DNA of 44,559 nucleotides, taken from Escherichia phage AAPEc6. The notes beneath the pieces were generated by a model. That model was not told the origin of the DNA. It ran no database searches and saw nothing but the letters and a program-made list of their open reading frames with translations. Made by a program: the position numbers and the translations under genes. Location of the stretch: the sequence record NC_047769.1, one strand, 5' to 3'. Below, piece by piece: positions 6,246-38,894 of the stretch. How positions within the stretch are numbered: the stretch's first letter is position 1; each line of letters begins with the position of its first letter.

Positions 6246-8234
6246 ATGGCTATTATTCAGAATGTACCGTGTCCTGCCTGTCAAAAGAATGGACATGATA
6301 TTACTGGCAACCATCTCATGATATTTGATGATGGTGCTGGCTACTGTAATCGTGGACACTTTCATGATAATGGTAGACCTTACTATCACAAGCCGGAAGG
6401 TGGCATCGAGATAACCGAGTTACCTATTACTGGCAATATCAAATATACACCTTCTCAATTCAAAGAAATGGAGAAGGAAGGGAAGATAAGCGACCCTAAA
6501 TTACGTGCCATCGCACTAGGTGGTATGCGTATGAAAGACCGTTGGGAGGTCATGAATGAGCAAGAAAGGGCAGACCAAGAAGCAGAGTGGAAACTTGATG
6601 TTGAATGGTTCCTTACGCTTAAGCGTAAGAACCTTGTTTCCCGACACATTCGCGGCGACATTTGCGCATTGTATGATGTACGTGTCGGACACGATGAAGA
6701 GGGTAGAGTCTCGAGGCATTACTATCCACGCTTCGAGAAAGGTGAGCTAGTAGGCGCTAAGTGTCGCACATTACCTAAAGACTTTAAGTTTGGTCATTTA
6801 GGTAAACTCTTTGGTATGCAAGATCTTTTCGGGATGAATACTTTGTCTCACGTGTTAGACAAGGGAAGACGAAAGGATTGCTTGCTTATTGTGGGTGGGG
6901 AACTGGATGCGCTAGCAGCGCAGCAGATGCTCCTTGATTCTGCCAAGGGTACTAAGTGGGAAGGCCAACCTTACCATGTATGGTCTGTTAACAAAGGGGA
7001 GTCTTGCCTTGAAGAGATTGTGCAGAACCGTGAACACATCGCCCAATTCAAGAAGATTATTTGGGGCTTCGATGGGGATGAGGTAGGGCAGAAGCAGAAC
7101 CAGCAAGCGGCTCGCCTGTTTCCTGGCAAATCCTATATCCTTGAGTACCCTTCTGGCTGCAAAGATGCCAACAAGGCATTGATGGCTGGCAAGGCTAAAG
7201 AGTTTGTTGATGCATGGTTTAATGCCAAGCCATCTGATGAAGTCTTTGGTAGCCAGATTAAATCTATCGCATCTCAAAGGGATAAGCTCAAGGCTGCACG
7301 TCCAGAGCAAGGACTATCATGGCCTTGGCCTAAGCTGAACAAGGTAACGCTAGGTATTCGTAAGAACCAGCTTATCATTGTAGGTGCAGGGTCTGGTGTA
7401 GGTAAGACTGAGTTCCTTCGTGAAGTAGTTAAGCACCTCATTGAAGAACACGGTGAATCTGTGGGCATCATTTCTACAGAAGACCCGATGGTCAAGGTGT
7501 CCCGTGCTTTTATCGGCAAGTGGATTGATAAGCGTATTGAGTTACCTCCAACCAACGACCCGAAAGAAGACGGATACCGTGAGGTGTTCGACTATACCGA
7601 GGAAGAAGCTAACGCCGCCATTGATTATGTAGCTGATACAGGTAAGCTGTTTGTAGCTGACCTAGAGGGTGACTATTCGATGGAAAAGGTAGAGCAAACT
7701 TGCCTAGAGTTTGAGGCTATGGGTATTTCTAATATCATCATTGATAACTTAACGGGGATTAAATTAGATGAGCGTGCTTTTGGTGGGAAGGTTGGTGCAC
7801 TTGATGAATGCGTCAAGCGGATTGGTACTATCAAAGACCGACACCCGGTTACTATATTCCTTGTATCACACCTTACACGTCCTCCGGCAAACCGTACCCA
7901 ACACGAAGAAGGTGGCGAAGTTATCCTTTCTGACTTCCGAGGCTCAGGCGCTATCGGATTCTGGGCATCTTACGCCTTGGGGATTGAGCGTAATACAAGA
8001 GCTGAAACGCTTGACGAAAGGACTACCACGTACATCTCATGTGTCAAAGACCGCGACCAAGGTATCTACACTGGAACCAAGGTCATGCTTAAGGGTGACA
8101 TTCAAACCGGACGTTTAATGGAACCACAAGCCCGTACTAAGTCATTTGATACAGGTGAAGCAAGGCAACAAGAAGTACCAGATTTACCGGACACTATAGA
8201 AGAGACTAACTTCGATGAAGAAAGTGAGTTCTGA
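6246..8234 (+). CDS. DNA primase/helicase (T7 gp4-like)
   Basis: 662 aa; N-terminal zinc ribbon (CPAC...C..GHFH), Walker A GAGSGVGKT, acidic C-terminus ending ...FDEESEF. Confidence 0.95.
   Translation: MAIIQNVPCPACQKNGHDITGNHLMIFDDGAGYCNRGHFHDNGRPYYHKPEGGIEITELPITGNIKYTPSQFKEMEKEGKISDPKLRAIALGGMRMKDRWEVMNEQERADQEAEWKLDVEWFLTLKRKNLVSRHIRGDICALYDVRVGHDEEGRVSRHYYPRFEKGELVGAKCRTLPKDFKFGHLGKLFGMQDLFGMNTLSHVLDKGRRKDCLLIVGGELDALAAQQMLLDSAKGTKWEGQPYHVWSVNKGESCLEEIVQNREHIAQFKKIIWGFDGDEVGQKQNQQAARLFPGKSYILEYPSGCKDANKALMAGKAKEFVDAWFNAKPSDEVFGSQIKSIASQRDKLKAARPEQGLSWPWPKLNKVTLGIRKNQLIIVGAGSGVGKTEFLREVVKHLIEEHGESVGIISTEDPMVKVSRAFIGKWIDKRIELPPTNDPKEDGYREVFDYTEEEANAAIDYVADTGKLFVADLEGDYSMEKVEQTCLEFEAMGISNIIIDNLTGIKLDERAFGGKVGALDECVKRIGTIKDRHPVTIFLVSHLTRPPANRTQHEEGGEVILSDFRGSGAIGFWASYALGIERNTRAETLDERTTTYISCVKDRDQGIYTGTKVMLKGDIQTGRLMEPQARTKSFDTGEARQQEVPDLPDTIEETNFDEESEF
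6845..6860 (+). repeat. Palindrome variant GTCTCACGTGTTAGAC inside the primase-helicase CDS
   Basis: Read directly; one mismatch from the perfect palindrome. Confidence 0.6.
8182..8204 (+). promoter_or_regulatory. Phage promoter (ATTTACCGGACACTATAGAAGAG) embedded in the helicase C-terminal codons
   Basis: Near-consensus; encodes ...DLPDTIEET... Confidence 0.6.
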
Positions 8235-8255
8235 TTAGTGTATTTATCAGGGCTT

Positions 8256-8271
8256 GTCTCACATGTGAGAC
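8256..8271 (+). repeat. 16-bp palindrome (copy 3) with conserved flanks ggcttGTCTCACATGTGAGACagg, downstream of the helicase
   Basis: Read directly; followed by a T-rich stretch, hairpin/terminator-like. Confidence 0.9.
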
Positions 8272-8310
8272 AGGCTCTTATTAAGTACATTAAATAACTG
8301 GAGATTGATT

Positions 8311-8994
8311 ATGTATAACTTAGTGTTGAATGTAGGTGACTTTGTACGCAACATCAAGAAAGATTCAAGTCGCTATCTTTGCCGTGGTGTTGTAACCTTT
8401 GTAGGTGAGAACCTGTATTATGTAGAATATCGCAGTGGTGTTAAGCAATATTACCACAAGAAGACAGCACATAAATATCTTGAAAAGATTGTAGAGATAA
8501 ACAATCAATGTAAGTGCATACATGATGAGGTTTGCGATAAATGTGCTCGCCAGATGCTTAAGAATTTCCTAGCTCCTCTTTATTATGGTGCTGGCCCTCA
8601 AACACTAGCAGAGTACATGGCAGAAAAGAAAACCACACTCAAGAAAGAGCGTCGCAATGTAATCACTGGTAAGACTCAAAGTGAGATGATTAAGCAATGT
8701 GGCACTGCATTAGGTGTTACGCAGTTTAATACTCGTTCATTGGGTAAATCCACAGGGCAAGCTATGGTAAAGATTGGCGAAGCCATGATGCATCCAAATG
8801 TACCTGTACGAATCATGGATGTTGACCATGCAATCACAGAACACGGTACGCAACGACGTGTAATTAATAAGCATTTTGCCGACACTATAGAAGGTATTAT
8901 TCGTAAGCAAGAGTTGAAGGGTCTTCACATCTTAAATGGTGAAGAATTACTGTACCTACCTATCGTTACTGAAGAAACATACGTGAATATCTAA
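8311..8994 (+). CDS. Hypothetical protein with Cys cluster (CKCIHDEVCDKC), 228 aa
   Basis: ORF track 8305..8994 (TTG); ATG at 8311. Confidence 0.6.
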   Translation: MYNLVLNVGDFVRNIKKDSSRYLCRGVVTFVGENLYYVEYRSGVKQYYHKKTAHKYLEKIVEINNQCKCIHDEVCDKCARQMLKNFLAPLYYGAGPQTLAEYMAEKKTTLKKERRNVITGKTQSEMIKQCGTALGVTQFNTRSLGKSTGQAMVKIGEAMMHPNVPVRIMDVDHAITEHGTQRRVINKHFADTIEGIIRKQELKGLHILNGEELLYLPIVTEETYVNI

Positions 8995-9004
8995 GGAGTT
9001 AATC

Positions 9005-9163
9005 ATGACTAAGGTATTAATTTATATGCGTGGACCTCATAAATGCTATGCAGTTGTAGCACCAAATGGTGTTAAGCCTTATCGTACTTCAAAAAGATTG
9101 GCATTAATAGGTGCTAGTAGTAGTGCAAGTTTCCAAATGGAACTTTTTTGGTCATTGGACTGA
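9005..9163 (+). CDS. Small ORF (52 aa)
   Basis: AAGGAG 6 nt upstream of the ATG; below the ORF-track cutoff. Confidence 0.35.
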   Translation: MTKVLIYMRGPHKCYAVVAPNGVKPYRTSKRLALIGASSSASFQMELFWSLD

Positions 9164-9213
9164 AAGGCAATTCCGTGAGGATTTTAAAGTCATTGGCAGC
9201 TTCATGGTGAAAT

Positions 9214-9390
9214 ATGCAGAATAAACATAGTCTTAAAATGTTCGATGGTCATGAAGACCTGCAAGCCAAGATTACTAACCAAGCCTTCCTGTTCGCTCAG
9301 GTAACTATGGCTGAGGCCAAGAAGAATAGTCTCACTCGTGAACAGGTTATCAAGGAAAGTGAAGTGAAACGTAAGATTCGCAGTCGATAA
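9214..9390 (+). CDS. Small ORF (58 aa, basic C-terminus)
   Basis: ATG at 9214; ends just before the palindrome at 9401. Confidence 0.3.
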   Translation: MQNKHSLKMFDGHEDLQAKITNQAFLFAQVTMAEAKKNSLTREQVIKESEVKRKIRSR

Positions 9391-15121: not shown

Positions 15122-16062
15122 TAGATGCTGATATGTTACCTTACATCGTAGGGTATACAATCAGTGATATGACTTATGTACGAGCCACAACTCGTGTTAA
15201 GTCAGGACAAGTCCCATCAATTAAAGACACACCTGAGTGTAAGCAAGCGTGTGACCGTGTGAACTCCTTGCTTAACTCTTGGGTGTACGCAGCAGAATGT
15301 GATGCAGCTAAGTTATTCATGACGAAATCAGAAGCTAACTTCCGTGTCCGCCTAGCATTCACCAAACCTTATAAGGGTCAACGTAAGACCGAGAAGCCTC
15401 CGTTCTTCTATGAATTGCGAGAGCATCTCTTAGAGGTTCATGGTGCAATCTTGGCAGATGGAGAAGAGGCTGATGACCTCATGAGCATCGCACAATGGGA
15501 CAGCCACCGCCGCTTCCAGCAAGATACAGGTAACGAGTTCCCTATCGGTAGTCCAGAGCATAAAGCATTCTCTGATACTTGCATCGTTTCCTTGGATAAG
15601 GATTTGATGATTGTTCCCGGTTGGCACCTTCAGCCGGGACAAGAGAAGAAATGGGTAGAGCCTATGGGTTGGCTTGAGTTACGCCGTAAGGCTAATGGTC
15701 AGGTTAAAGACCTTAAAGGTGCTGGCCTCATGTTTCATTATGCACAGATGATTATCGGTGATGATATTGATAACTATGCTGGCATACCTGGACGTGGTGC
15801 TAAATACGCCTATGATCTTCTCAAAGATTGTAAGACAGAGAAAGAGTTGTACATGGCAGTACTTGGTGCTTACAAGGCTAAGTTCGGACATGGACAAGTT
15901 AAGATTAAGAATTACCGAGGTGGTTATCGTATCGGCAAGGCTTTTGACCTGATGCTCGAATGTGGTCGCCTAGCTCACATGGCAAGATTCAAAGGTGATA
16001 TATGGCGAGCCGATAAGAACCCAATCTTGTGGGGAGATGATGCGGAATGGTTAGCAAATTAA
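15034..16062 (+). CDS. 5'-3' exonuclease (FEN family, T7 gp6-like)
   Basis: Motifs IALIDADMLPY, GEEADDLMS, SLDKDLMIVPGWH, IIGDDIDNYAGIPG; ATG at 15034 after AAGGAG (ORF track GTG at 15025). Confidence 0.85.
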   Translation: MRPNFDFGATVSEDNNLLLWPTEGNRIALIDADMLPYIVGYTISDMTYVRATTRVKSGQVPSIKDTPECKQACDRVNSLLNSWVYAAECDAAKLFMTKSEANFRVRLAFTKPYKGQRKTEKPPFFYELREHLLEVHGAILADGEEADDLMSIAQWDSHRRFQQDTGNEFPIGSPEHKAFSDTCIVSLDKDLMIVPGWHLQPGQEKKWVEPMGWLELRRKANGQVKDLKGAGLMFHYAQMIIGDDIDNYAGIPGRGAKYAYDLLKDCKTEKELYMAVLGAYKAKFGHGQVKIKNYRGGYRIGKAFDLMLECGRLAHMARFKGDIWRADKNPILWGDDAEWLAN

Positions 16063-16457
16063 AATCATCGGAGGTAGCAGCTTATAAGAGGGAATTGCTA
16101 GAGAAGCAAGGATGGAAGTGCCCCCTATGTGGCGGCAGTCTCAAGGCTGTTACTCCTATAAACCGTGTACTTGACCATGACCATGAGACAGGATTCTGCC
16201 GTGCTGTTGTATGCCGAGGCTGCAATGGTGCAGAAGGAAAGATTAAGGGTGTTATCTCTGGTTATGGTAAGGCTGGTAACAACCGTTACTTCCAGCTTCA
16301 ATGGTTAGAGCGACTATATGAATACTGGAAGTTACATAGTACGCCTCAGACAGATAAGTTATATCACAAACACCAAACGGAGGCAGAGAAGCGCGAGGCT
16401 AAGAACCGTAAGGCACGCCTTGCTTATGCAAGAAAGAAGGAGGTTAAAGTTGGGTAA
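16047..16457 (+). CDS. Endonuclease VII-type Holliday junction resolvase (His-Me finger)
   Basis: Motif CPLCGG...DHDHETGFCRAVVCRGCNGAEG. Confidence 0.85.
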   Translation: MVSKLKSSEVAAYKRELLEKQGWKCPLCGGSLKAVTPINRVLDHDHETGFCRAVVCRGCNGAEGKIKGVISGYGKAGNNRYFQLQWLERLYEYWKLHSTPQTDKLYHKHQTEAEKREAKNRKARLAYARKKEVKVG

Positions 16458-19196: not shown

Positions 19197-19325
19197 AGGA
19201 ATGGAGATGCTTGAGATGATTCTCAAGCCTTCTTCTCCGAAGGTGACTAAGACTCATGAAGAGTTAATCGTTGATGAAGTGAAGCGTTACATCATGGATT
19301 GTGTCAGAGCACAACTGGTGGTCCA

Positions 19326-19787
19326 ATGATACGTCCAGCTTCCTTCCTAGATATTCCTGAGATTATAAACCTTGGGAATAAATATGTGGAAGAGGAAGTC
19401 AAGGTAGTGGCCCATCACTCAGCCTCATGGAATGCAGAACAAAGCGCACATAACCTTTGCGCATCTCTTAGTAGAGAAGATTTATTCCTATGGGTTGCTG
19501 TAGATGAAGGGCAGATTGTAGGGTTCCTGTGGGCTGGCTATCACGAGTTGGCCCCTTGGACACCTGTAAGGGTTGCCTCTGACATTCTCTTTTATATTAT
19601 ACCAGAGAAGCGAGGAACCCTACTTGGTATGCGTCTCATCAAAGCCCTAAAGCAATGGGCTAGTGATAATGAATGCTCTGAGGTTCGCCTGTCTATCGCC
19701 TCTGGTATTAATGAAGAACGTGTCGGACGTATGTATAAGCGACTTGGCTTTGAACCGTTTGGCACTGTGTACAACCTGAAGTTCTAA
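19326..19787 (+). CDS. GNAT-family N-acetyltransferase
   Basis: Acetyl-CoA-binding-like segment (QIVGFLWA...RGTLLGMRLIKAL) and overall GNAT pattern; ORF track starts at 19299. Confidence 0.7.
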   Translation: MIRPASFLDIPEIINLGNKYVEEEVKVVAHHSASWNAEQSAHNLCASLSREDLFLWVAVDEGQIVGFLWAGYHELAPWTPVRVASDILFYIIPEKRGTLLGMRLIKALKQWASDNECSEVRLSIASGINEERVGRMYKRLGFEPFGTVYNLKF

Positions 19788-33700: not shown

Positions 33701-34025
33701 GGCCTTTGGTGCAATGGGTATGATGAGTACAACTGCTGTATTTAGTCTAGGTGGAGATTTCTTAGGTGGCCTAGGTGTTCTACCTTCTGAGTTAGTACAA
33801 TCCCGTTATGAGGCTGGCTTTCAGACTAAGGGTTTGATAGACCAAATACCACTAGTAGGTGTTGGTCAAGATGCATATCGTTTAGCAGATTCTATAACTA
33901 AATACGCAGAGGGTGATACAGAAGGTGTAGATGTGGCACGTAGGGCTTTACGCTTAGTGCCTCTAGCTAATGTAATAGGAATCCAGAACGCATTGCGTTA
34001 TGGCTTAGATGAACTGGAGGATTAA
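30717..34025 (+). CDS. Large internal virion / ejection protein (gp16-like)
   Basis: 1102 aa; position and size. Confidence 0.75.
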   Translation: MEQDIKTNWAGYVQSTPEPFSIEAAPVSAPTIRQRNELQEQVLEAKADADILGAVGAAFQNEWLAFGGKRWYDRATADFTPQPDFEIQPEQREALRFKYGTDMMQTITEGVRSEDELNFRIQNADEDLERNKRIAQAGWVGSVATIGAAVLDPVGWVASIPTGGAAKVGLVGRAVRGAIAAGVSNAAIESVLVQGDMTRDLDDIMVALGSGMAMGGIIGAVARGRATKLSEQGDDRAASIVRSADAGDRYVRAVADDSIGAMRVKGEEVLTEGAFDISSKGEDLLKTLQREGNAIDMTPRRWAGTLSALGTVVHSSQDASVRGLGARLFESPQGLGMQKASASLMQNTNLNRLKSADMNRFNDGFDLWLKENNINPVAGHTNSHYVQQYNEKVWEAVRIGMDESTPKSIRMAAEGQQAMYREALALRQRSGEAGFEKVKADDKYMPDIFDSMKARRQFSMHDKEDIIELFSRAYQNGSRKVPKEVADDIARAQVNRVADATLTGQLSFEKAMSGQTKAEYEALMRKAGFSDEEIEKMVEALDNKETRDNISNRAKMSLGLDVTQEYNGIRMRDFMNTNVEELTDNYMKEAAGGAALARQGFSTYQAALNAIDLVERNARNAAKDTKAHAQFEAESAKIRQSEPDYKKAQEKIEELKKRLKLKEKDEAAGLAIDEEIRQMREGLRLIMGKSIDSNPQDLSTKMLRRGRDITGVLRLGQMGFAQLGELANFMGEFGIAATTMALGKQFRFTSKALRNGDGFFRDKNLAEVERMVGYIGEDNWLTTKGARPDEFGDVTTVRGMMAHFDQSMNSIRRAQTNLSLFRMAQGSLERMTNRQIALSFIDHLEGKKIIPQKKLEELGLTQEFMTNLQKHYDANSKGSGLLGFDTMPYAMGETLANAIRRKSGLIIQRNFIGDEGIWMNKALGKTFAQLKSFSLVSGEKQFGRGIRHDKIGLAKKTAFGFALGSMVYAAKAYVNSIGREDQDEYLEEKLSPKGLAFGAMGMMSTTAVFSLGGDFLGGLGVLPSELVQSRYEAGFQTKGLIDQIPLVGVGQDAYRLADSITKYAEGDTEGVDVARRALRLVPLANVIGIQNALRYGLDELED

Positions 34026-34987
34026 TGAGTTATACTTTCACAGAACATATAGCCAACGGTACGCAAGTAACCTATCCCTTTAGCTTTGCTGGTAGGGATA
34101 AAGGTTATCTTCGTGCCTCAGATGTGATAGTGGAGTCTCTTCAAGGTAACACTTGGATTGAGGTTACATCTGGCTGGCAACTAACTGGCACGCACCAGAT
34201 TACTTTTGATGTAGCACCAGTTGCAGGTTTGAAGTTCCGTATTCGAAGGGAAGTACAAAAGGAGTATCCATACGCTGAGTTTGACCGTGGTGTTACCTTG
34301 GATATGAAGTCTTTAAATGGTTCTTTCATTCATATACTGGAGATTACACAGGAGTTACTTGACGGGTTTTATCCAGAAGGATACTTCATTAAACAGAATG
34401 TAAGCTGGGGCGGCAATAAGATTACTGATTTGGCTGATGGCACAAATCCTGGAGATGCAGTAAATAAAGGGCAGCTTGATGCCATCGACAAGAAGCATAC
34501 AGATTGGAACGCCAAACAGGACATTGAGATTGCTGGCCTTAAGGCTGGTATGACTTCTGGTATTGCGCACAGAACTGTTCCTTGGTACACGATAGCCCAA
34601 GGTGGTGAGATTTCCGTAAAACCACCTTATGAATTTCAAGATGCACTAGTTTTCCTTAATGGGGTATTGCAGCACCAAATTGTAGGCGCATACTCTATAA
34701 GCAACAACACTATCACTTTCGCAGAGCCGCTTGTGGCGGGTACAGAGGTGTATGTGCTGATTGGTAGTCGTGTGGCTACATCTGAACCTAATATTCAGTT
34801 GGAGTTGAACTTTGACTTAGTAGAAGGCCAACAAGTAGTACAGATTGGCTCTGCATTTAAGTACATTGAGGTCTACCTTGATGGATTATTACAACCTAAA
34901 CTTGCTTATCAGGTAGACGGTGACATTGTTACTTTCTCAGAAAGAGTACCAGAATGCCGGATGACTGCTAAGATTATCACAGCATAA
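34025..34987 (+). CDS. Tail fiber adaptor (T7 gp17 N-terminal domain-like)
   Basis: N-terminus YTFTEHIANGTQVTYPFSFAGRDKGYLRASDVIV resembles the T7 tail fiber N-terminal anchoring domain; only 320 aa. Confidence 0.7.
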   Translation: MSYTFTEHIANGTQVTYPFSFAGRDKGYLRASDVIVESLQGNTWIEVTSGWQLTGTHQITFDVAPVAGLKFRIRREVQKEYPYAEFDRGVTLDMKSLNGSFIHILEITQELLDGFYPEGYFIKQNVSWGGNKITDLADGTNPGDAVNKGQLDAIDKKHTDWNAKQDIEIAGLKAGMTSGIAHRTVPWYTIAQGGEISVKPPYEFQDALVFLNGVLQHQIVGAYSISNNTITFAEPLVAGTEVYVLIGSRVATSEPNIQLELNFDLVEGQQVVQIGSAFKYIEVYLDGLLQPKLAYQVDGDIVTFSERVPECRMTAKIITA

Positions 34988-34996
34988 GGAGGTGGG

Positions 34997-35191
34997 ATGA
35001 TTAACTCCGAACTGGTAGATAGTGGTGTGAAGCTTGCGCCACCTGCACTCGTATCAGGTGGGTACTTCCTCGGTATCAGTTGGGATAATTGGGTGTTAAT
35101 AGCAACATTCATTTATACCGTGTTGCAAATTGGGGACTGGTTTTATAATAAGTTCAAGATTTGGAGGGAGAAGCGTGAGCGTACACAATAA
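34997..35191 (+). CDS. Class II holin (T7 gp17.5-like)
   Basis: ISWDNWVLIATFIYTVLQIG resembles T7 holin LSLNEWFYVAAIAYTVVQIG; AAGGAGG RBS. Confidence 0.75.
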   Translation: MINSELVDSGVKLAPPALVSGGYFLGISWDNWVLIATFIYTVLQIGDWFYNKFKIWREKRERTQ

Positions 35192-35474
35192 ACATGCAGC
35201 TACAGAGGACGAGGTTGGCATTCTGCATGGTGCTATTACCAAAATCTTCAATAAGAAAGCACAGGCAATACTGGACACTATAGAAGAAGACCCTGATGCA
35301 GCATTACATTTAGTGTCTGGTAAGGATATTGGTGCGATGTGTAAGTGGGTTCTTGATAACGGCATTACCGCCACACCTGCTGCACAGCAGGAAGAGTCCA
35401 AGTTATCTAAGCGCCTCAAGGCTATCCGAGAGGCATCCAGTGGTAAAATAATTCAATTTACAAAAGAGGAGTAA
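35175..35474 (+). CDS. Candidate terminase small subunit (GTG start)
   Basis: No in-frame ATG near the 5' end; GTG at 35175 after GGAGGGAG; position between holin and large terminase. Confidence 0.45.
   Translation: MSVHNKHAATEDEVGILHGAITKIFNKKAQAILDTIEEDPDAALHLVSGKDIGAMCKWVLDNGITATPAAQQEESKLSKRLKAIREASSGKIIQFTKEE
35268..35288 (+). promoter_or_regulatory. Promoter-like sequence (ATACTGGACACTATAGAAGAA) inside the small-terminase ORF
   Basis: Core matches the consensus; the upstream ATTT is degenerate. Confidence 0.4.
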
Positions 35475-35475
35475 T

Positions 35476-35919
35476 ATGCATAGATGGTGTGAATCTCAAG
35501 GTTATACCATCTTACCTTCTGGTGTCATCCTTTCAAAGGGTGGCACCCCTCTCAAGCCTTTCAAGGTGGGTAGGGGTTATTTAGCAGTTAAAATTAAAAA
35601 TAAAGAAGGTAAATGGCGTAATGTCTATGTTCATCACTTAGTGGCTTATAAGTATTTACCTAAAACCGATAATGAAGTAAACCACAAAGACGGCAATAAG
35701 CACAACAATGATGTTAGCAACTTGGAGTGGGTGACAAGAAGCGAGAATAACTACTTAAAATGCAATGGAAATGATAGGAGTGCCTTAAATAATTACTTAG
35801 CAAGATTAAAAGATTGCTTCTTGCAGGGTAAGGGTGTAGCAGAAACCGCTAGGCTTACTGGTAAAAGTGAACCAAGGGTTTCTTCTCTCTTTAAGGAGTG
35901 GCGAAATGGCAAAGGCTAG
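35476..35919 (+). CDS. HNH homing endonuclease
   Basis: Motif VNHKDGNKHNNDVSNLEWVTRSENN; A-rich codon usage; GAGGAG RBS. Confidence 0.85.
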   Translation: MHRWCESQGYTILPSGVILSKGGTPLKPFKVGRGYLAVKIKNKEGKWRNVYVHHLVAYKYLPKTDNEVNHKDGNKHNNDVSNLEWVTRSENNYLKCNGNDRSALNNYLARLKDCFLQGKGVAETARLTGKSEPRVSSLFKEWRNGKG

Positions 35920-37804
35920 AGAATCACAGGCAGAGGCATTAAAGCGGTGGGAAAACCTTAAAGAACTACAAGACACTTTTAAGTATACAGCGGAAGGTTT
36001 GCTTCTCTTTGCAGATACAGTTATTCATAACTTAATTGCAGGCAACCCTCATCTGATTCGTATGCAGGCGGATATCTTGAAGTTCCTATTTTACGGACAC
36101 AAGTACCGCCTCATCGAAGCGCCTCGTGGTATCGCTAAGACAACACTATCAGCAATCTATACGGTATTCCGTATTATTCATGAACCGCATAAGCGTATCA
36201 TGGTTGTGTCCCAAAACGCCAAGCGAGCAGAGGAAATCGCAGGTTGGGTAGTTAAAATCTTCCGTGGCTTAGACTTTCTTGAGTTTATGCTGCCGGATAT
36301 CTACGCTGGGGACCGTGCATCCGTTAAGGCGTTTGAGATTCATTACACCCTACGTGGTAGTGATAAGTCTCCTTCTGTATCCTGTTACTCAATCGAAGCA
36401 GGTATGCAGGGCGCTCGTGCTGATATTATTCTAGCGGATGACGTAGAGTCGATGCAGAATGCTCGTACGGCAGCGGGCCGTGCCTTGCTTGAGGAGCTGA
36501 CTAAGGAGTTTGAATCTATCAACCAGTTTGGGGATATCATTTACCTTGGTACACCTCAGAACGTAAACTCTATCTACAACAACCTACCTGCTCGTGGTTA
36601 CTCTGTTCGTATCTGGACTGCGCGTTACCCTTCAGTAGAGCAAGAGCAATGTTATGGCGACTTCCTTGCACCTATGATTGTTCAAGATATGAAGGACAAC
36701 CCAGCACTTCGCTCAGGGTACGGGTTGGATGGTAATAGTGGTGCACCTTGTGCCCCTGAAATGTATGATGATGAAGTCCTGATTGAGAAGGAAATCTCTC
36801 AGGGTGCTGCTAAGTTCCAGCTTCAGTTCATGCTTAACACTCGCATGATGGATGCTGACAGATACCCATTACGCCTGAACAATCTAATCTTCACCTCGTT
36901 TGGTACAGAGGAAGTCCCTGTGATGCCTACGTGGAGTAATGATTCCATAAACATCATTGGTGATGCACCTAAGTATGGTAACAAGCCTACGGATTTCATG
37001 TACAGACCTGTAGCTCGCCCATATGAATGGGGTGCTGTCTCCCGCAAGATTATGTATATTGACCCTGCGGGTGGTGGTAAGAATGGAGATGAGACGGGTG
37101 TAGCCATCGTATTCCTGCACGGCACATTCATTTATGTGTATCAGTGCTTTGGTGTACCTGGCGGATACCGAGAGTCGTCCCTGAATCGCATTGTGCAGGC
37201 CGCAAAGCAGGCGGGTGTTAAAGAGGTATTCATTGAGAAGAACTTTGGTCATGGCGCGTTTGAGGCGGTAATTAAGCCGTACTTTGAACGAGAGTGGCCT
37301 GTAACTCTGGAAGAGGATTACGCCACCGGACAGAAAGAGTTGCGTATCATTGAGACGCTGGAGCCGCTCATGGCAGCCCATAGGCTTATCTTCAATGCAG
37401 AGATGGTGAAGTCAGACTTTGAGTCGGTACAGCACTATCCGCTTGAACTACGCATGTCCTACAGTCTTTTCAATCAAATGTCGAACATAACGATTGAGAA
37501 GAACAGCCTCCGGCATGATGACCGCCTAGACGCCCTGTATGGCGCTATACGGCAATTAACTTCTCAGATAGACTATGACGAGGTTACACGGATTAATCGC
37601 CTCAGAGCGCAGGAGATGCGCGATTACATCCATGCTATGAACACACCTCATCTACGCAGGGCAATGCTATATGGAGATTACGGTACTGAGCGAAGAGTGA
37701 CCAACACTTCCGTAGCGATGCAGCAGCGAGTTTACGGGCAGAACTACCGAAATAAATCGGCAAGCAGAAATACACTTTCTGCAAGGATTTCAAGGACTTA
37801 TTAA
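35906..37804 (+). CDS. Terminase large subunit (gp19-like)
   Basis: ATPase and nuclease segments (APRGIAKTT, ADIILADDVE, IYLGTPQN); ATG at 35906 after AAGGAG (ORF track 35867). Confidence 0.93.
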   Translation: MAKARESQAEALKRWENLKELQDTFKYTAEGLLLFADTVIHNLIAGNPHLIRMQADILKFLFYGHKYRLIEAPRGIAKTTLSAIYTVFRIIHEPHKRIMVVSQNAKRAEEIAGWVVKIFRGLDFLEFMLPDIYAGDRASVKAFEIHYTLRGSDKSPSVSCYSIEAGMQGARADIILADDVESMQNARTAAGRALLEELTKEFESINQFGDIIYLGTPQNVNSIYNNLPARGYSVRIWTARYPSVEQEQCYGDFLAPMIVQDMKDNPALRSGYGLDGNSGAPCAPEMYDDEVLIEKEISQGAAKFQLQFMLNTRMMDADRYPLRLNNLIFTSFGTEEVPVMPTWSNDSINIIGDAPKYGNKPTDFMYRPVARPYEWGAVSRKIMYIDPAGGGKNGDETGVAIVFLHGTFIYVYQCFGVPGGYRESSLNRIVQAAKQAGVKEVFIEKNFGHGAFEAVIKPYFEREWPVTLEEDYATGQKELRIIETLEPLMAAHRLIFNAEMVKSDFESVQHYPLELRMSYSLFNQMSNITIEKNSLRHDDRLDALYGAIRQLTSQIDYDEVTRINRLRAQEMRDYIHAMNTPHLRRAMLYGDYGTERRVTNTSVAMQQRVYGQNYRNKSASRNTLSARISRTY

Positions 37805-37826
37805 TTACTGGACACTATAGAAGGAA
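37803..37826 (+). promoter_or_regulatory. Phage promoter (AATTACTGGACACTATAGAAGGAA)
   Basis: Near-consensus; overlaps the terminase stop codon. Confidence 0.75.
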
Positions 37827-37839
37827 GGCCCAGATAATA

Positions 37840-37885
37840 AGAGAAATAATAGGTAATATAGGTTAACCTAGGTTATATAGGTATG
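37840..37885 (+). other. AT-rich block of four phased TAGGT(A/T)A repeats; candidate secondary origin or regulatory site
   Basis: ATAGGTAAT, ATAGGTTAA, CTAGGTTAT, ATAGGTATG at about 9-10 bp spacing; followed by hairpin GGGTGTAC-TCCT-GTACACCC (37895-37914). Confidence 0.4.
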
Positions 37886-37960
37886 CCTTAGTATGGGTGT
37901 ACTCCTGTACACCCTATTCCTTACTACCTTACTATATTTACATAATAGGAGAGAGAGACA

Positions 37961-38239
37961 ATGGCTAATGATTATAGTAGTCAACCATTAACAGGTAAGT
38001 CTAAGCGAAAGCAGGTACAACCTGTAAGTGAAGCACTAATGCTTCCGGTAATCTCAAAAGAGGAAGCTAGTAAGAAAATCAATGTTATTAATGATGCCAC
38101 CAAATCAGGTAAACAGAAAGGGGCCATGGTGTGCCTTGAAGTGGAAGATGGTGTATTGAAGATTGCTATCGCGGTTGATGGCAAAGAAGATTCAGAGTGG
38201 AAGTTAGTGACAGTGGAACCCACTGTTACCCCAGCTTAA
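37961..38239 (+). CDS. Small protein, paralog A (92 aa)
   Basis: Shares the core SGKQKGAMV-LE...L-IA-A...W...VTPA with the next ORF. Confidence 0.6.
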   Translation: MANDYSSQPLTGKSKRKQVQPVSEALMLPVISKEEASKKINVINDATKSGKQKGAMVCLEVEDGVLKIAIAVDGKEDSEWKLVTVEPTVTPA

Positions 38240-38256: not shown

Positions 38257-38550
38257 ATGGCTAAATATGGTACTACAGGTTCTGTTACTGGTCAGGCTTT
38301 TCGAGTAAAAGCAGTACAAACTATTGCAACGGCAATCCCGATGCCTGTTGTTAAAGAAGCAGACCTTAAGAGTAAAGATCACCCTATCAACATCAAACAC
38401 CTGTCAGGTAAGCAGAAAGGTGCAATGGTTGCTCTTGAGAAAGATGACACAACCTTACATATTGCTGTTGCACGTGGTAGTGAACCCACAGACTCTTGGG
38501 ATGTAACTGGTATGGAATCGCTCGCTGTCACTCCAGCAGGTGGAGAATAA
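38257..38550 (+). CDS. Small protein, paralog B (97 aa)
   Basis: AAGGAGGAGG RBS; paralogous to 37961..38239. Confidence 0.6.
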   Translation: MAKYGTTGSVTGQAFRVKAVQTIATAIPMPVVKEADLKSKDHPINIKHLSGKQKGAMVALEKDDTTLHIAVARGSEPTDSWDVTGMESLAVTPAGGE

Positions 38551-38894
38551 TGCTTAACAAATACTTCAAGCGTAAAGAGTTCGCTTGCCGTTGTGGGTGC
38601 GGTACATCCACTGTTGATGCTGAATTACTACAGGTAGTCACAGATGTGCGTGAGCACTTTGGTTCTCCTGTAGTTATCACTTCGGGGCATCGCTGTGCTA
38701 AGCACAATGCCAATGTAGGTGGCGCTAAGAACTCCATGCATCTTACTGGTAAGGCTGCTGACATTAAAGTGTCTGGCATATTACCTTCTGAAGTGCATAA
38801 GTATCTTACTAGCAAATACCAAGGCAAGTATGGTATCGGTAAGTATAACTCCTTCACTCACATCGATGTACGGGATGGTTGTGCGCGATGGTAA
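38550..38894 (+). CDS. Endolysin, peptidase M15-type zinc peptidoglycan hydrolase
   Basis: Motifs SGHRCAKHN, NSMHLTGKAADI, HID (H-x-D / H zinc-ligand pattern); TAATG overlap with the upstream ORF. Confidence 0.75.
   Translation: MLNKYFKRKEFACRCGCGTSTVDAELLQVVTDVREHFGSPVVITSGHRCAKHNANVGGAKNSMHLTGKAADIKVSGILPSEVHKYLTSKYQGKYGIGKYNSFTHIDVRDGCARW

Follow-up and report, generated by a model that had tools for sequence, protein, structure and literature searches.

The terS/terL Junction and Its Empty Alleles

The window, the whole stretch of 44,559 nt analyzed here, is the complete genome of a K1-5-like Vectrevirus (Autographiviridae, Molineuxvirinae; K1-5/K1E group). Its region 34000-38000 shares 98.6-98.7% identity with phages 101101UKE1, KMB47, and VEc3, and 99.2% identity with K1-5 over the 87% that aligns. 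A free-standing HNH gene (35476..35919, + strand), with an ATG start and a product of 147 amino acids, lies between the two terminase genes. Its left neighbor is terS, the small terminase subunit gene (35175..35474, + strand; GTG start, 99 amino acids), whose product matches Pfam PF11123 (3.6e-16) and phrog_891 (9.5e-26) and is colinear with K1-5 gp42. On the right is terL (35906..37804, + strand), encoding a large terminase subunit of the T7/SP6 type of 632 amino acids that matches PF22530, the T7-type RNase H-like terminase domain (1.5e-35), and phrog_17672 (2.2e-238). The terL ATG at 35906 was placed by homology with K1-5 gp43, and the HNH ORF overlaps terL by 14 nt (35906-35919). An earlier sequence-only reading had given this position, size, overlap, and place between the terminase genes, all correctly. 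A Shine-Dalgarno sequence read off the DNA, GAGGAG (35466..35471, + strand), stands 4 nt 5' of the HNH start codon, and a second one for terL, AAGGAG (35893..35898, + strand), falls within the 3' end of the HNH ORF, where it replaces the AAGGAGG given by the 3' end of terS in alleles without the gene.

Matches to the SP6-type promoter (+ strand, ≤3 mismatches) were found at 1801, 8182, 8873, 12371, 14286, 17452, 22484, and 39469, where chance would be expected to give 0. None lies between 22484 and 39469, so none is specific to the HNH gene, and sigma-70-like promoter matches for this gene were at chance level only. A terminator-like hairpin follows terL at 37895-37914. Because there is no promoter between 22504 and 39469, the genes from capsid through terL form, as judged from these signals, one late block, and together with the hairpin after terL this suggests that the HNH gene is probably expressed late with the structural genes. 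Two small tandem paralogous genes lie 3' of terL (37961-38239 and 38257-38550); their products are 38% identical and have a common motif, SGKQKGAMV. The K1-5 and VEc3 homologues are named "acetyl-CoA acetyltransferase" in RefSeq, a name that looks like an annotation error, since the proteins have no Pfam match and only 92-97 amino acids. Accessory genes recognized by Pfam elsewhere in the window encode an Ocr DNA mimic (1326-1694), an endonuclease VII (16047-16457), a GNAT acetyltransferase (19299-19787), and an M15 peptidase (endolysin; 38496-38894).

The sequence-only reading had proposed a comparison with relatives, in which a gene universally present at this locus would count against its view of the gene as a possible selfish homing element. 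The gene is far from universal: it occupies the terS/terL junction in 16 of the 76 phage records that match the terS-terL region and is missing from 60, including K1-5 and K1E, and it was found in 0 of 26 IMG/VR relatives. In carriers the terS-terL match is one colinear piece of 1226 nt. Among the 44 non-carriers listed, 42 span 794 nt, the length of an empty junction, and the remaining two, one from GenBank and one from RefSeq, are both of mutPK1A2, which has a different, frameshifted HNH gene. Even records under one species name differ, with the gene present in T145P2 OZ035747 and absent from T145P2 OZ035802. The flanks of the empty K1-5 locus are about 99% identical to those of the window, and those of K1E 92-94%. 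In both phages the empty junction reads GGATTGATGG, and in the empty alleles of all genera sampled (K1-5, K1E, and SP6-like; Klebsiella, Proteus, and Erwinia phages) the terS stop codon overlaps or abuts the terL ATG (AAGGAGGxTTRATGGC). Because the junction is empty in every genus sampled, the empty junction is, on this distribution, the ancestral state.

Relative to K1-5 the insertion is exactly 432 nt, which leaves terS and terL at full length and bears out the expectation of a precise junction. Its edges carry further changes. On the left (35459..35474, + strand), four substitutions relative to the empty allele (35459, 35462, 35465, and 35471) and a TAA stop alter the terS C terminus from ...KED* to ...KEE*; the same terS 3' variant is present in the mutPK1A2 allele, which holds an unrelated HNH gene that we call type B (the gene of the window being type A). 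On the right, a recoded terL 5' tract (35911..35986, + strand) has 26-29 substitutions relative to alleles without the gene. Against K1-5 there are about 12 mismatches in 1450 nt upstream, 5 in the last 25 nt of terS, 29 across the 84 nt that open terL, and 3 in the 1800 nt after that, and the flanks outside the altered region differ by <1%. We thus delimit a mobile cassette of about 530 nt, roughly 35459-35986. It supplies the ribosome-binding sites of both the HNH ORF and terL, and because it brings both, the two packaging genes stay intact. We found no Rfam family, group I and II introns included, in the whole window at gathering thresholds, the ORF lies between two separate genes, and the insertion has no meaningful terminal repeats that would indicate a transposon; an intron or transposon context was rejected on the absence of an Rfam match and of such repeats.

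Fifteen of the 29 changes in the recoded tract are to A. Five replace amino acids (A13K, M17N, Q19K, Q23D, and P26K) at positions otherwise conserved across SP6-like TerL, and the others are silent. All 16 carriers have the tract, and it is absent from every other record, both at the DNA level and, at the protein level, among 150 Molineuxvirinae-type matches. A donor lineage was not found by distant blastn with the 96-nt tract or tblastn with the 39-residue TerL N terminus, which matched only the 16 carriers; a word-index protein search with the 50-residue TerL N terminus gave zero matches, the query probably being too short. The recoded tract is a candidate target-site immunity patch. Against this role, the linkage of tract and gene may be mere physical hitch-hiking from a donor, and five of the changes replace otherwise conserved TerL residues. 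We considered whether those five replacements do more than confer immunity, the cassette being a two-part unit in which the nuclease is functionally coupled to the recoded TerL N terminus, and think this unlikely. Were it true, the enzyme might be, for example, a weapon on the terL start of co-infecting Vectrevirus, including type-B carriers, or a partner of the altered TerL, and the terS/terL junction would be a battleground of competing endonuclease lineages, as with SPO1 and SP82.

Fold, Active Site, and Composition of the HNH Protein

By profile comparison, the HNH assignment of the ORF is far beyond chance. The protein matches Pfam HNH_3 (PF13392) over residues 50-92 with 42.6 bits against a cut-off of 24.8 (E 4.8e-11), and its PHROGs matches are HNH endonuclease families (phrog_59, 3.6e-29). 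This HNH_3 catalytic core (residues 50-92, VHHLVAYKYL...EVNHKDGNKHNNDVSNLEWVTRSEN; 35623..35751, + strand; PF13392) aligns to residues 14-97 of I-HmuI (1U3E), the best solved relative by sequence (E 1.4e-6). Residues N69, H70, D72, N77, N78, N82, L83, E84, and W85 are invariant in 92 homologues. The predicted catalytic residues H70, N82, and N91 stand in the places of the active-site His, Asn, and Asn of I-HmuI, with H70 aligned to His75 and N91 to Asn96, and N91 is kept in at least 90% of the 92 homologues. The residues of the beta-beta-alpha-metal motif (general-base His, structural Asn, and metal-binding Asn) are all present.

An AlphaFold (AF2) model built with the 92 homologues reached a pLDDT of 90.3, and a Foldseek search of the PDB with this model returned I-HmuI (1u3e) as the only significant match (E 1.7e-7, probability 1.0), followed by weak matches to I-PpoI. 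The predicted layout is an N-terminal beta domain, the HNH motif, and three C-terminal helices resembling a helix-turn-helix. The C-terminal module (residues about 101-143; 35776..35904, + strand) is modeled by AF2 as helices at 101-116, 121-128, and 132-143 with pLDDT 87-90 and is a putative DNA-binding helix-turn-helix; its sequence matches, to HTH_23 (E 0.046) and ECF sigma region 4 (E 0.45), are below threshold. Neither NUMOD4 nor the I-HmuI NUMOD-like domain was detected in the protein, though these are found in many homologues. Searches of the window with the HNH protein (tblastn) and Pfam scans of its low-GC ORFs found no further HNH gene.

Close relatives of the protein, in a search of 5.8 billion proteins, form one Vectrevirus cluster only (97% identity), and the exact allele of the window has no identical entry in the large protein collection. 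Proteins 95-97% identical to it are already annotated as "HNH homing endonuclease" or "HNH endonuclease" in KMB47, EC120, and VEc3. The remaining homologues are distant: most of the length aligns at about 40% identity or less, and only the conserved HNH core exceeds this. The one exception, P0002, is a fusion of terS to a frameshifted HNH gene on a Logan contig (L039, ERR4564195, 3001-3743). The fusion was set aside as probably a sequencing or assembly artefact with homopolymer errors, because other genes on that contig, such as a gp16-like gene, are also in pieces.

One position departs from the family. The histidine of the SENxxH motif, three residues after the metal-binding Asn, is present in 88 of the 91 nearest homologues, whereas the window protein has Leu94 (codon 35755-35757), as do all type-A alleles. 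This substitution could weaken metal binding and is the main reason to doubt full activity. I-HmuI also has no SENxxH histidine, so this histidine does not define the wider family and Leu94 is not disqualifying. The ORF is intact in 9 of 9 carriers examined, and dN/dS across the three HNH alleles is 0.12-0.17, which, as a comparison of coding sequences, shows purifying selection on the protein.

These data bear on a reading in which the gene arrived by homing but is now spent or domesticated, being spread by ordinary homologous recombination or kept for the translation of terL. Leu94 would fit such an inactive passenger, as would the terL ribosome-binding site inside the gene, which makes imprecise loss costly, and decay does occur at this locus, where the type-B gene of mutPK1A2 has a 1-nt deletion. 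The low dN/dS points the other way, to selection on the protein itself, and H70, N82, and N91 are intact along with the reading frames. In addition, the finding of an identical cassette in backbones 5-7% apart, with tracts reaching 30-140 nt beyond it, fits breaks beside the cassette better than random crossovers. On balance we regard the passenger reading as improbable.

The gene has a GC content of 39.4% against a genome mean of 45.2%, and an A content of 33.8% against 28.2%; among 444-nt windows, only 5.7% are as low in GC and 3.2% as high in A. Compared with 25 other genes, it is atypical in GC (z = -2.3) and A (z = +2.6) but not in GC3 (z = -0.56). With GC3 normal, the A-richness appears mostly to reflect the Lys/Asn-rich protein and not a foreign mutational signature, and we rejected composition as an independent sign of foreign origin. 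The sequence-only reading was thus right that the gene is A-rich relative to its neighbors, but its use of this as an argument for horizontal acquisition is weak. The acquisition itself is borne out by the comparative data, namely the polymorphism, the exact junction, and a cassette shared across backbones. Elsewhere in the genome, the stretch 8143-9239 is among the lowest in GC (about 37%); the SP6-type promoter matches at 8182 and 8873 lie inside it, and its 229-residue ORF (8305-8994) has no Pfam match.

The sequence-only reading had also raised the option that the HNH protein aids the terminase in concatemer cutting during packaging, like gp74 of HK97. In favor of this option, the gene separates terS from terL and is coupled to the latter in translation, and other phages commonly have HNH genes beside their terminase genes and cos sites (PMC3592412). 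In the T7-like Hafnia phage Ca, moreover, loss of an HNH gene just upstream of terL was accompanied by small plaques (PMC8861465). Set against this are the 60 of 76 related records without the gene, which include the viable and well studied K1-5 and K1E, and the viability of mutPK1A2 with a frameshifted HNH gene at the same site. The protein is an I-HmuI-like HNH_3 protein with only three cysteines (C5, C96, and C114), no CxxC, and no [CxxC]2 zinc site, and the T7-type TerL already includes an RNase H-like nuclease domain, its matches being PF22530 and the T7/SP6 phrogs only. A statement quoted in PMC8861465 describes the cofactor role as specific to Terminase_1-type enzymes. Given a gene dispensable in relatives, a protein without the zinc site, and a T7-type TerL, a role as terminase cofactor is very improbable.

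Movement of the Cassette between Phage Backbones

Pairs of carriers differ far more in their terminase genes than in the cassette between them. Over a 551-nt cassette, VEc3 and Mt1B1_P10 differ by 0.0%, whereas their terL genes are 6.9% and their terS genes 5.2% apart; counted from the terL ATG, the block of identity extends from -533 to +118. Other pairs have blocks from -569 to +163, or reaching +190; the conversion tracts extend only 30-140 nt past the cassette. The cassette of the window is a separate allele, 3.5% from the common VEc3 allele, in flanks that are 0-0.2% from VEc3 and K1-5, and the PhiNW-E1 cassette is a third allele, 9% away. Read from the aligned genomes, these blocks show homologous recombination to have carried the cassette from one diverged Vectrevirus backbone to another, together with short stretches of converted flank that vary in length. 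The short tracts suggest a target near the insertion and not hundreds of base pairs away.

Conversion tracts that center on the gene, its spread over different backbones, and a protein under selection are, at the level of sequence comparison, the expected marks of a free-standing homing endonuclease gene. Among the free-standing endonucleases of T4, intronless homing with co-conversion and marker exclusion is established (PMC2988022). Ordinary phage recombination could in principle explain the sharing of the cassette, and the nuclease activity, cleavage, and biased inheritance of this protein and its close relatives are predicted only. Nevertheless, the polymorphism, the exact junction, and an identical cassette across backbones 5-7% apart support the selfish homing element suggested by the sequence-only reading, and we consider it likely that this K1-5-like Vectrevirus has, in a mobile cassette between terS and terL, a homing endonuclease gene that is free-standing and of the I-HmuI/HNH_3 type.

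Other endonuclease-like insertions were observed in the packaging modules of related phages. A type-B gene of the HNH_3 plus helix-turn-helix kind is intact in L007 (2570-3004; IMG/VR 3300045988_003055), and in mutPK1A2 (L003:1979-2409) a 1-nt deletion splits it into two annotated ORFs, the mark of a decaying copy. A third HNH_3-type gene lies between the holin gene and terS in ACG-C91 (L006:2290-2700) and EC120 (L033:2600-3005), and in EC120 HNH genes flank terS on both sides. In K1E (gp40.5; L004:3193-3836) terL is divided into two ORFs by an insert of about 745 nt, as it also is in L013, L022, L024-L026, L029, and L030, several of them IMG/VR relatives; the insert protein has only weak, sub-threshold matches to GIY-YIG and to the I-HmuI NUMOD-like domain. 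Counting the junction, holin-terS, and terL inserts, the Vectrevirus packaging module has, on these annotations and matches, at least three endonuclease insertion sites.

Two unrelated HNH lineages, A and B (36% identical), occupy the one terS/terL junction, which raises the question of whether the enzyme acts chiefly as a weapon of competition, damaging the terL of co-infecting Vectrevirus that are HNH-less or carry type B, with homing as a side effect. In favor of this, the enzyme would presumably strike an essential packaging gene at its start. The situation of the A and B lineages resembles that of I-HmuI and I-HmuII, which are competing endonucleases of the phages SPO1 and SP82. PMC11620839 reports that an intron-encoded endonuclease was shown to mediate interference competition between co-infecting phages. 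The presence of the gene in only 16 of 76 records, however, gives no sign of a strong general advantage. The weapon reading, which is conjectural and would be compatible with the homing explanation and not exclusive of it, seems to us unlikely as the chief role of the enzyme.

Proposed Homing Cycle and Closest Known Systems

Under the homing explanation, late transcription of the gene would probably start at the 22484 promoter. During mixed infection the HNH protein would bind the standard allele at the junction or beside it, the conserved first 80 nt of terL being the likeliest place, through its beta domain and putative C-terminal helix-turn-helix, and would nick or cut the bound site with its beta-beta-alpha-metal site. 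Recombinational repair from the HNH-positive genome would then copy the gene and its immediate flanks into the recipient. This would be intronless homing accompanied by local marker exclusion. Carriers may be shielded from their own enzyme by the recoded terL tract and perhaps by the altered end of terS too.

We found no paper on the HNH gene or the cassette structure in Vectrevirus. The element is nonetheless of an already known kind; the finding is correct but ordinary, follows a textbook pattern, and opens no new biological question. It matters mainly for annotation and phage engineering. The gene would be dispensable selfish DNA outside the packaging machine, which can be removed or ignored in the design of K1-5-like therapeutic phages; because the terL ribosome-binding site lies inside it, any deletion must restore the native junction. 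The locus, with its sharply bounded cassette, three alleles, rival second HNH lineage at the same site, and one decayed copy, is a clean natural case of intronless homing in an SP6-like phage, and it could serve as a simple system for HNH target mapping and marker-exclusion tests in Autographiviridae.

The closest known system by fold is I-HmuI of Bacillus phage SPO1 (PDB 1U3E), an HNH nicking homing endonuclease to which the window protein is 32% identical over 108 Foldseek columns. As far as the model of the window protein goes, both begin with a beta-sheet DNA-binding domain weakly similar to I-PpoI, continue with an HNH/N site (His, Asn, and Asn), and end in helices, which bind DNA in I-HmuI and are putatively DNA-binding in the window protein. 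The window protein is shorter (147 versus 174 amino acids) and carries Asn69 at the position of the I-HmuI metal ligand Asp74, and its gene is free-standing, whereas I-HmuI is encoded within a group I intron of a DNA polymerase gene.

By genetic arrangement, the locus resembles those of the free-standing endonucleases of T4-like phages (MobA-E of the HNH family and SegA-G, with intronless homing), whose genes are likewise intergenic and sporadic among close relatives (PMC2988022). Co-conversion of flanks is a further feature of both, and the target-site polymorphism of T4-like carriers has a candidate counterpart here in the recoded terL tract (PMC2988022 for T4-like phages). The present case differs in belonging to the family Autographiviridae and in its short conversion tracts. 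Nearer in position are the HNH homing endonuclease genes of two Kayfunavirus phages, Hafnia phage Ca and Citrobacter phage CR44b, which immediately precede terL. In the T7-like Ca, a 143-residue HNH gene overlaps the terL start and shows a 397-bp presence/absence polymorphism (PMC8861465). Ca and CR44b belong to another genus and have a lysis gene in place of terS as the left neighbor, and the likeness is one of gene position as described for those phages. HNH proteins of the HK97 gp74 type have in common with the window an HNH motif and a gene beside the terminase genes, but they have a zinc-binding [CxxC]2 core, adjoin cos sites, and are conserved and required (PMC3592412; PMC8861465), none of which is true of the window gene.

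The nearest neighbors by genus are the other Vectrevirus insertions. The type-B HNH gene of mutPK1A2 and L007 has the same HNH_3 and putative helix-turn-helix arrangement, the same junction, and the same terS 3' variant as the window gene, from which it differs in its 36% protein identity, in keeping the SENxxH histidine, and in its standard terL 5' end. The gene between holin and terS in ACG-C91 and EC120 comes from the same genus and belongs to the same family, HNH_3 plus a putative helix-turn-helix, as the window gene.
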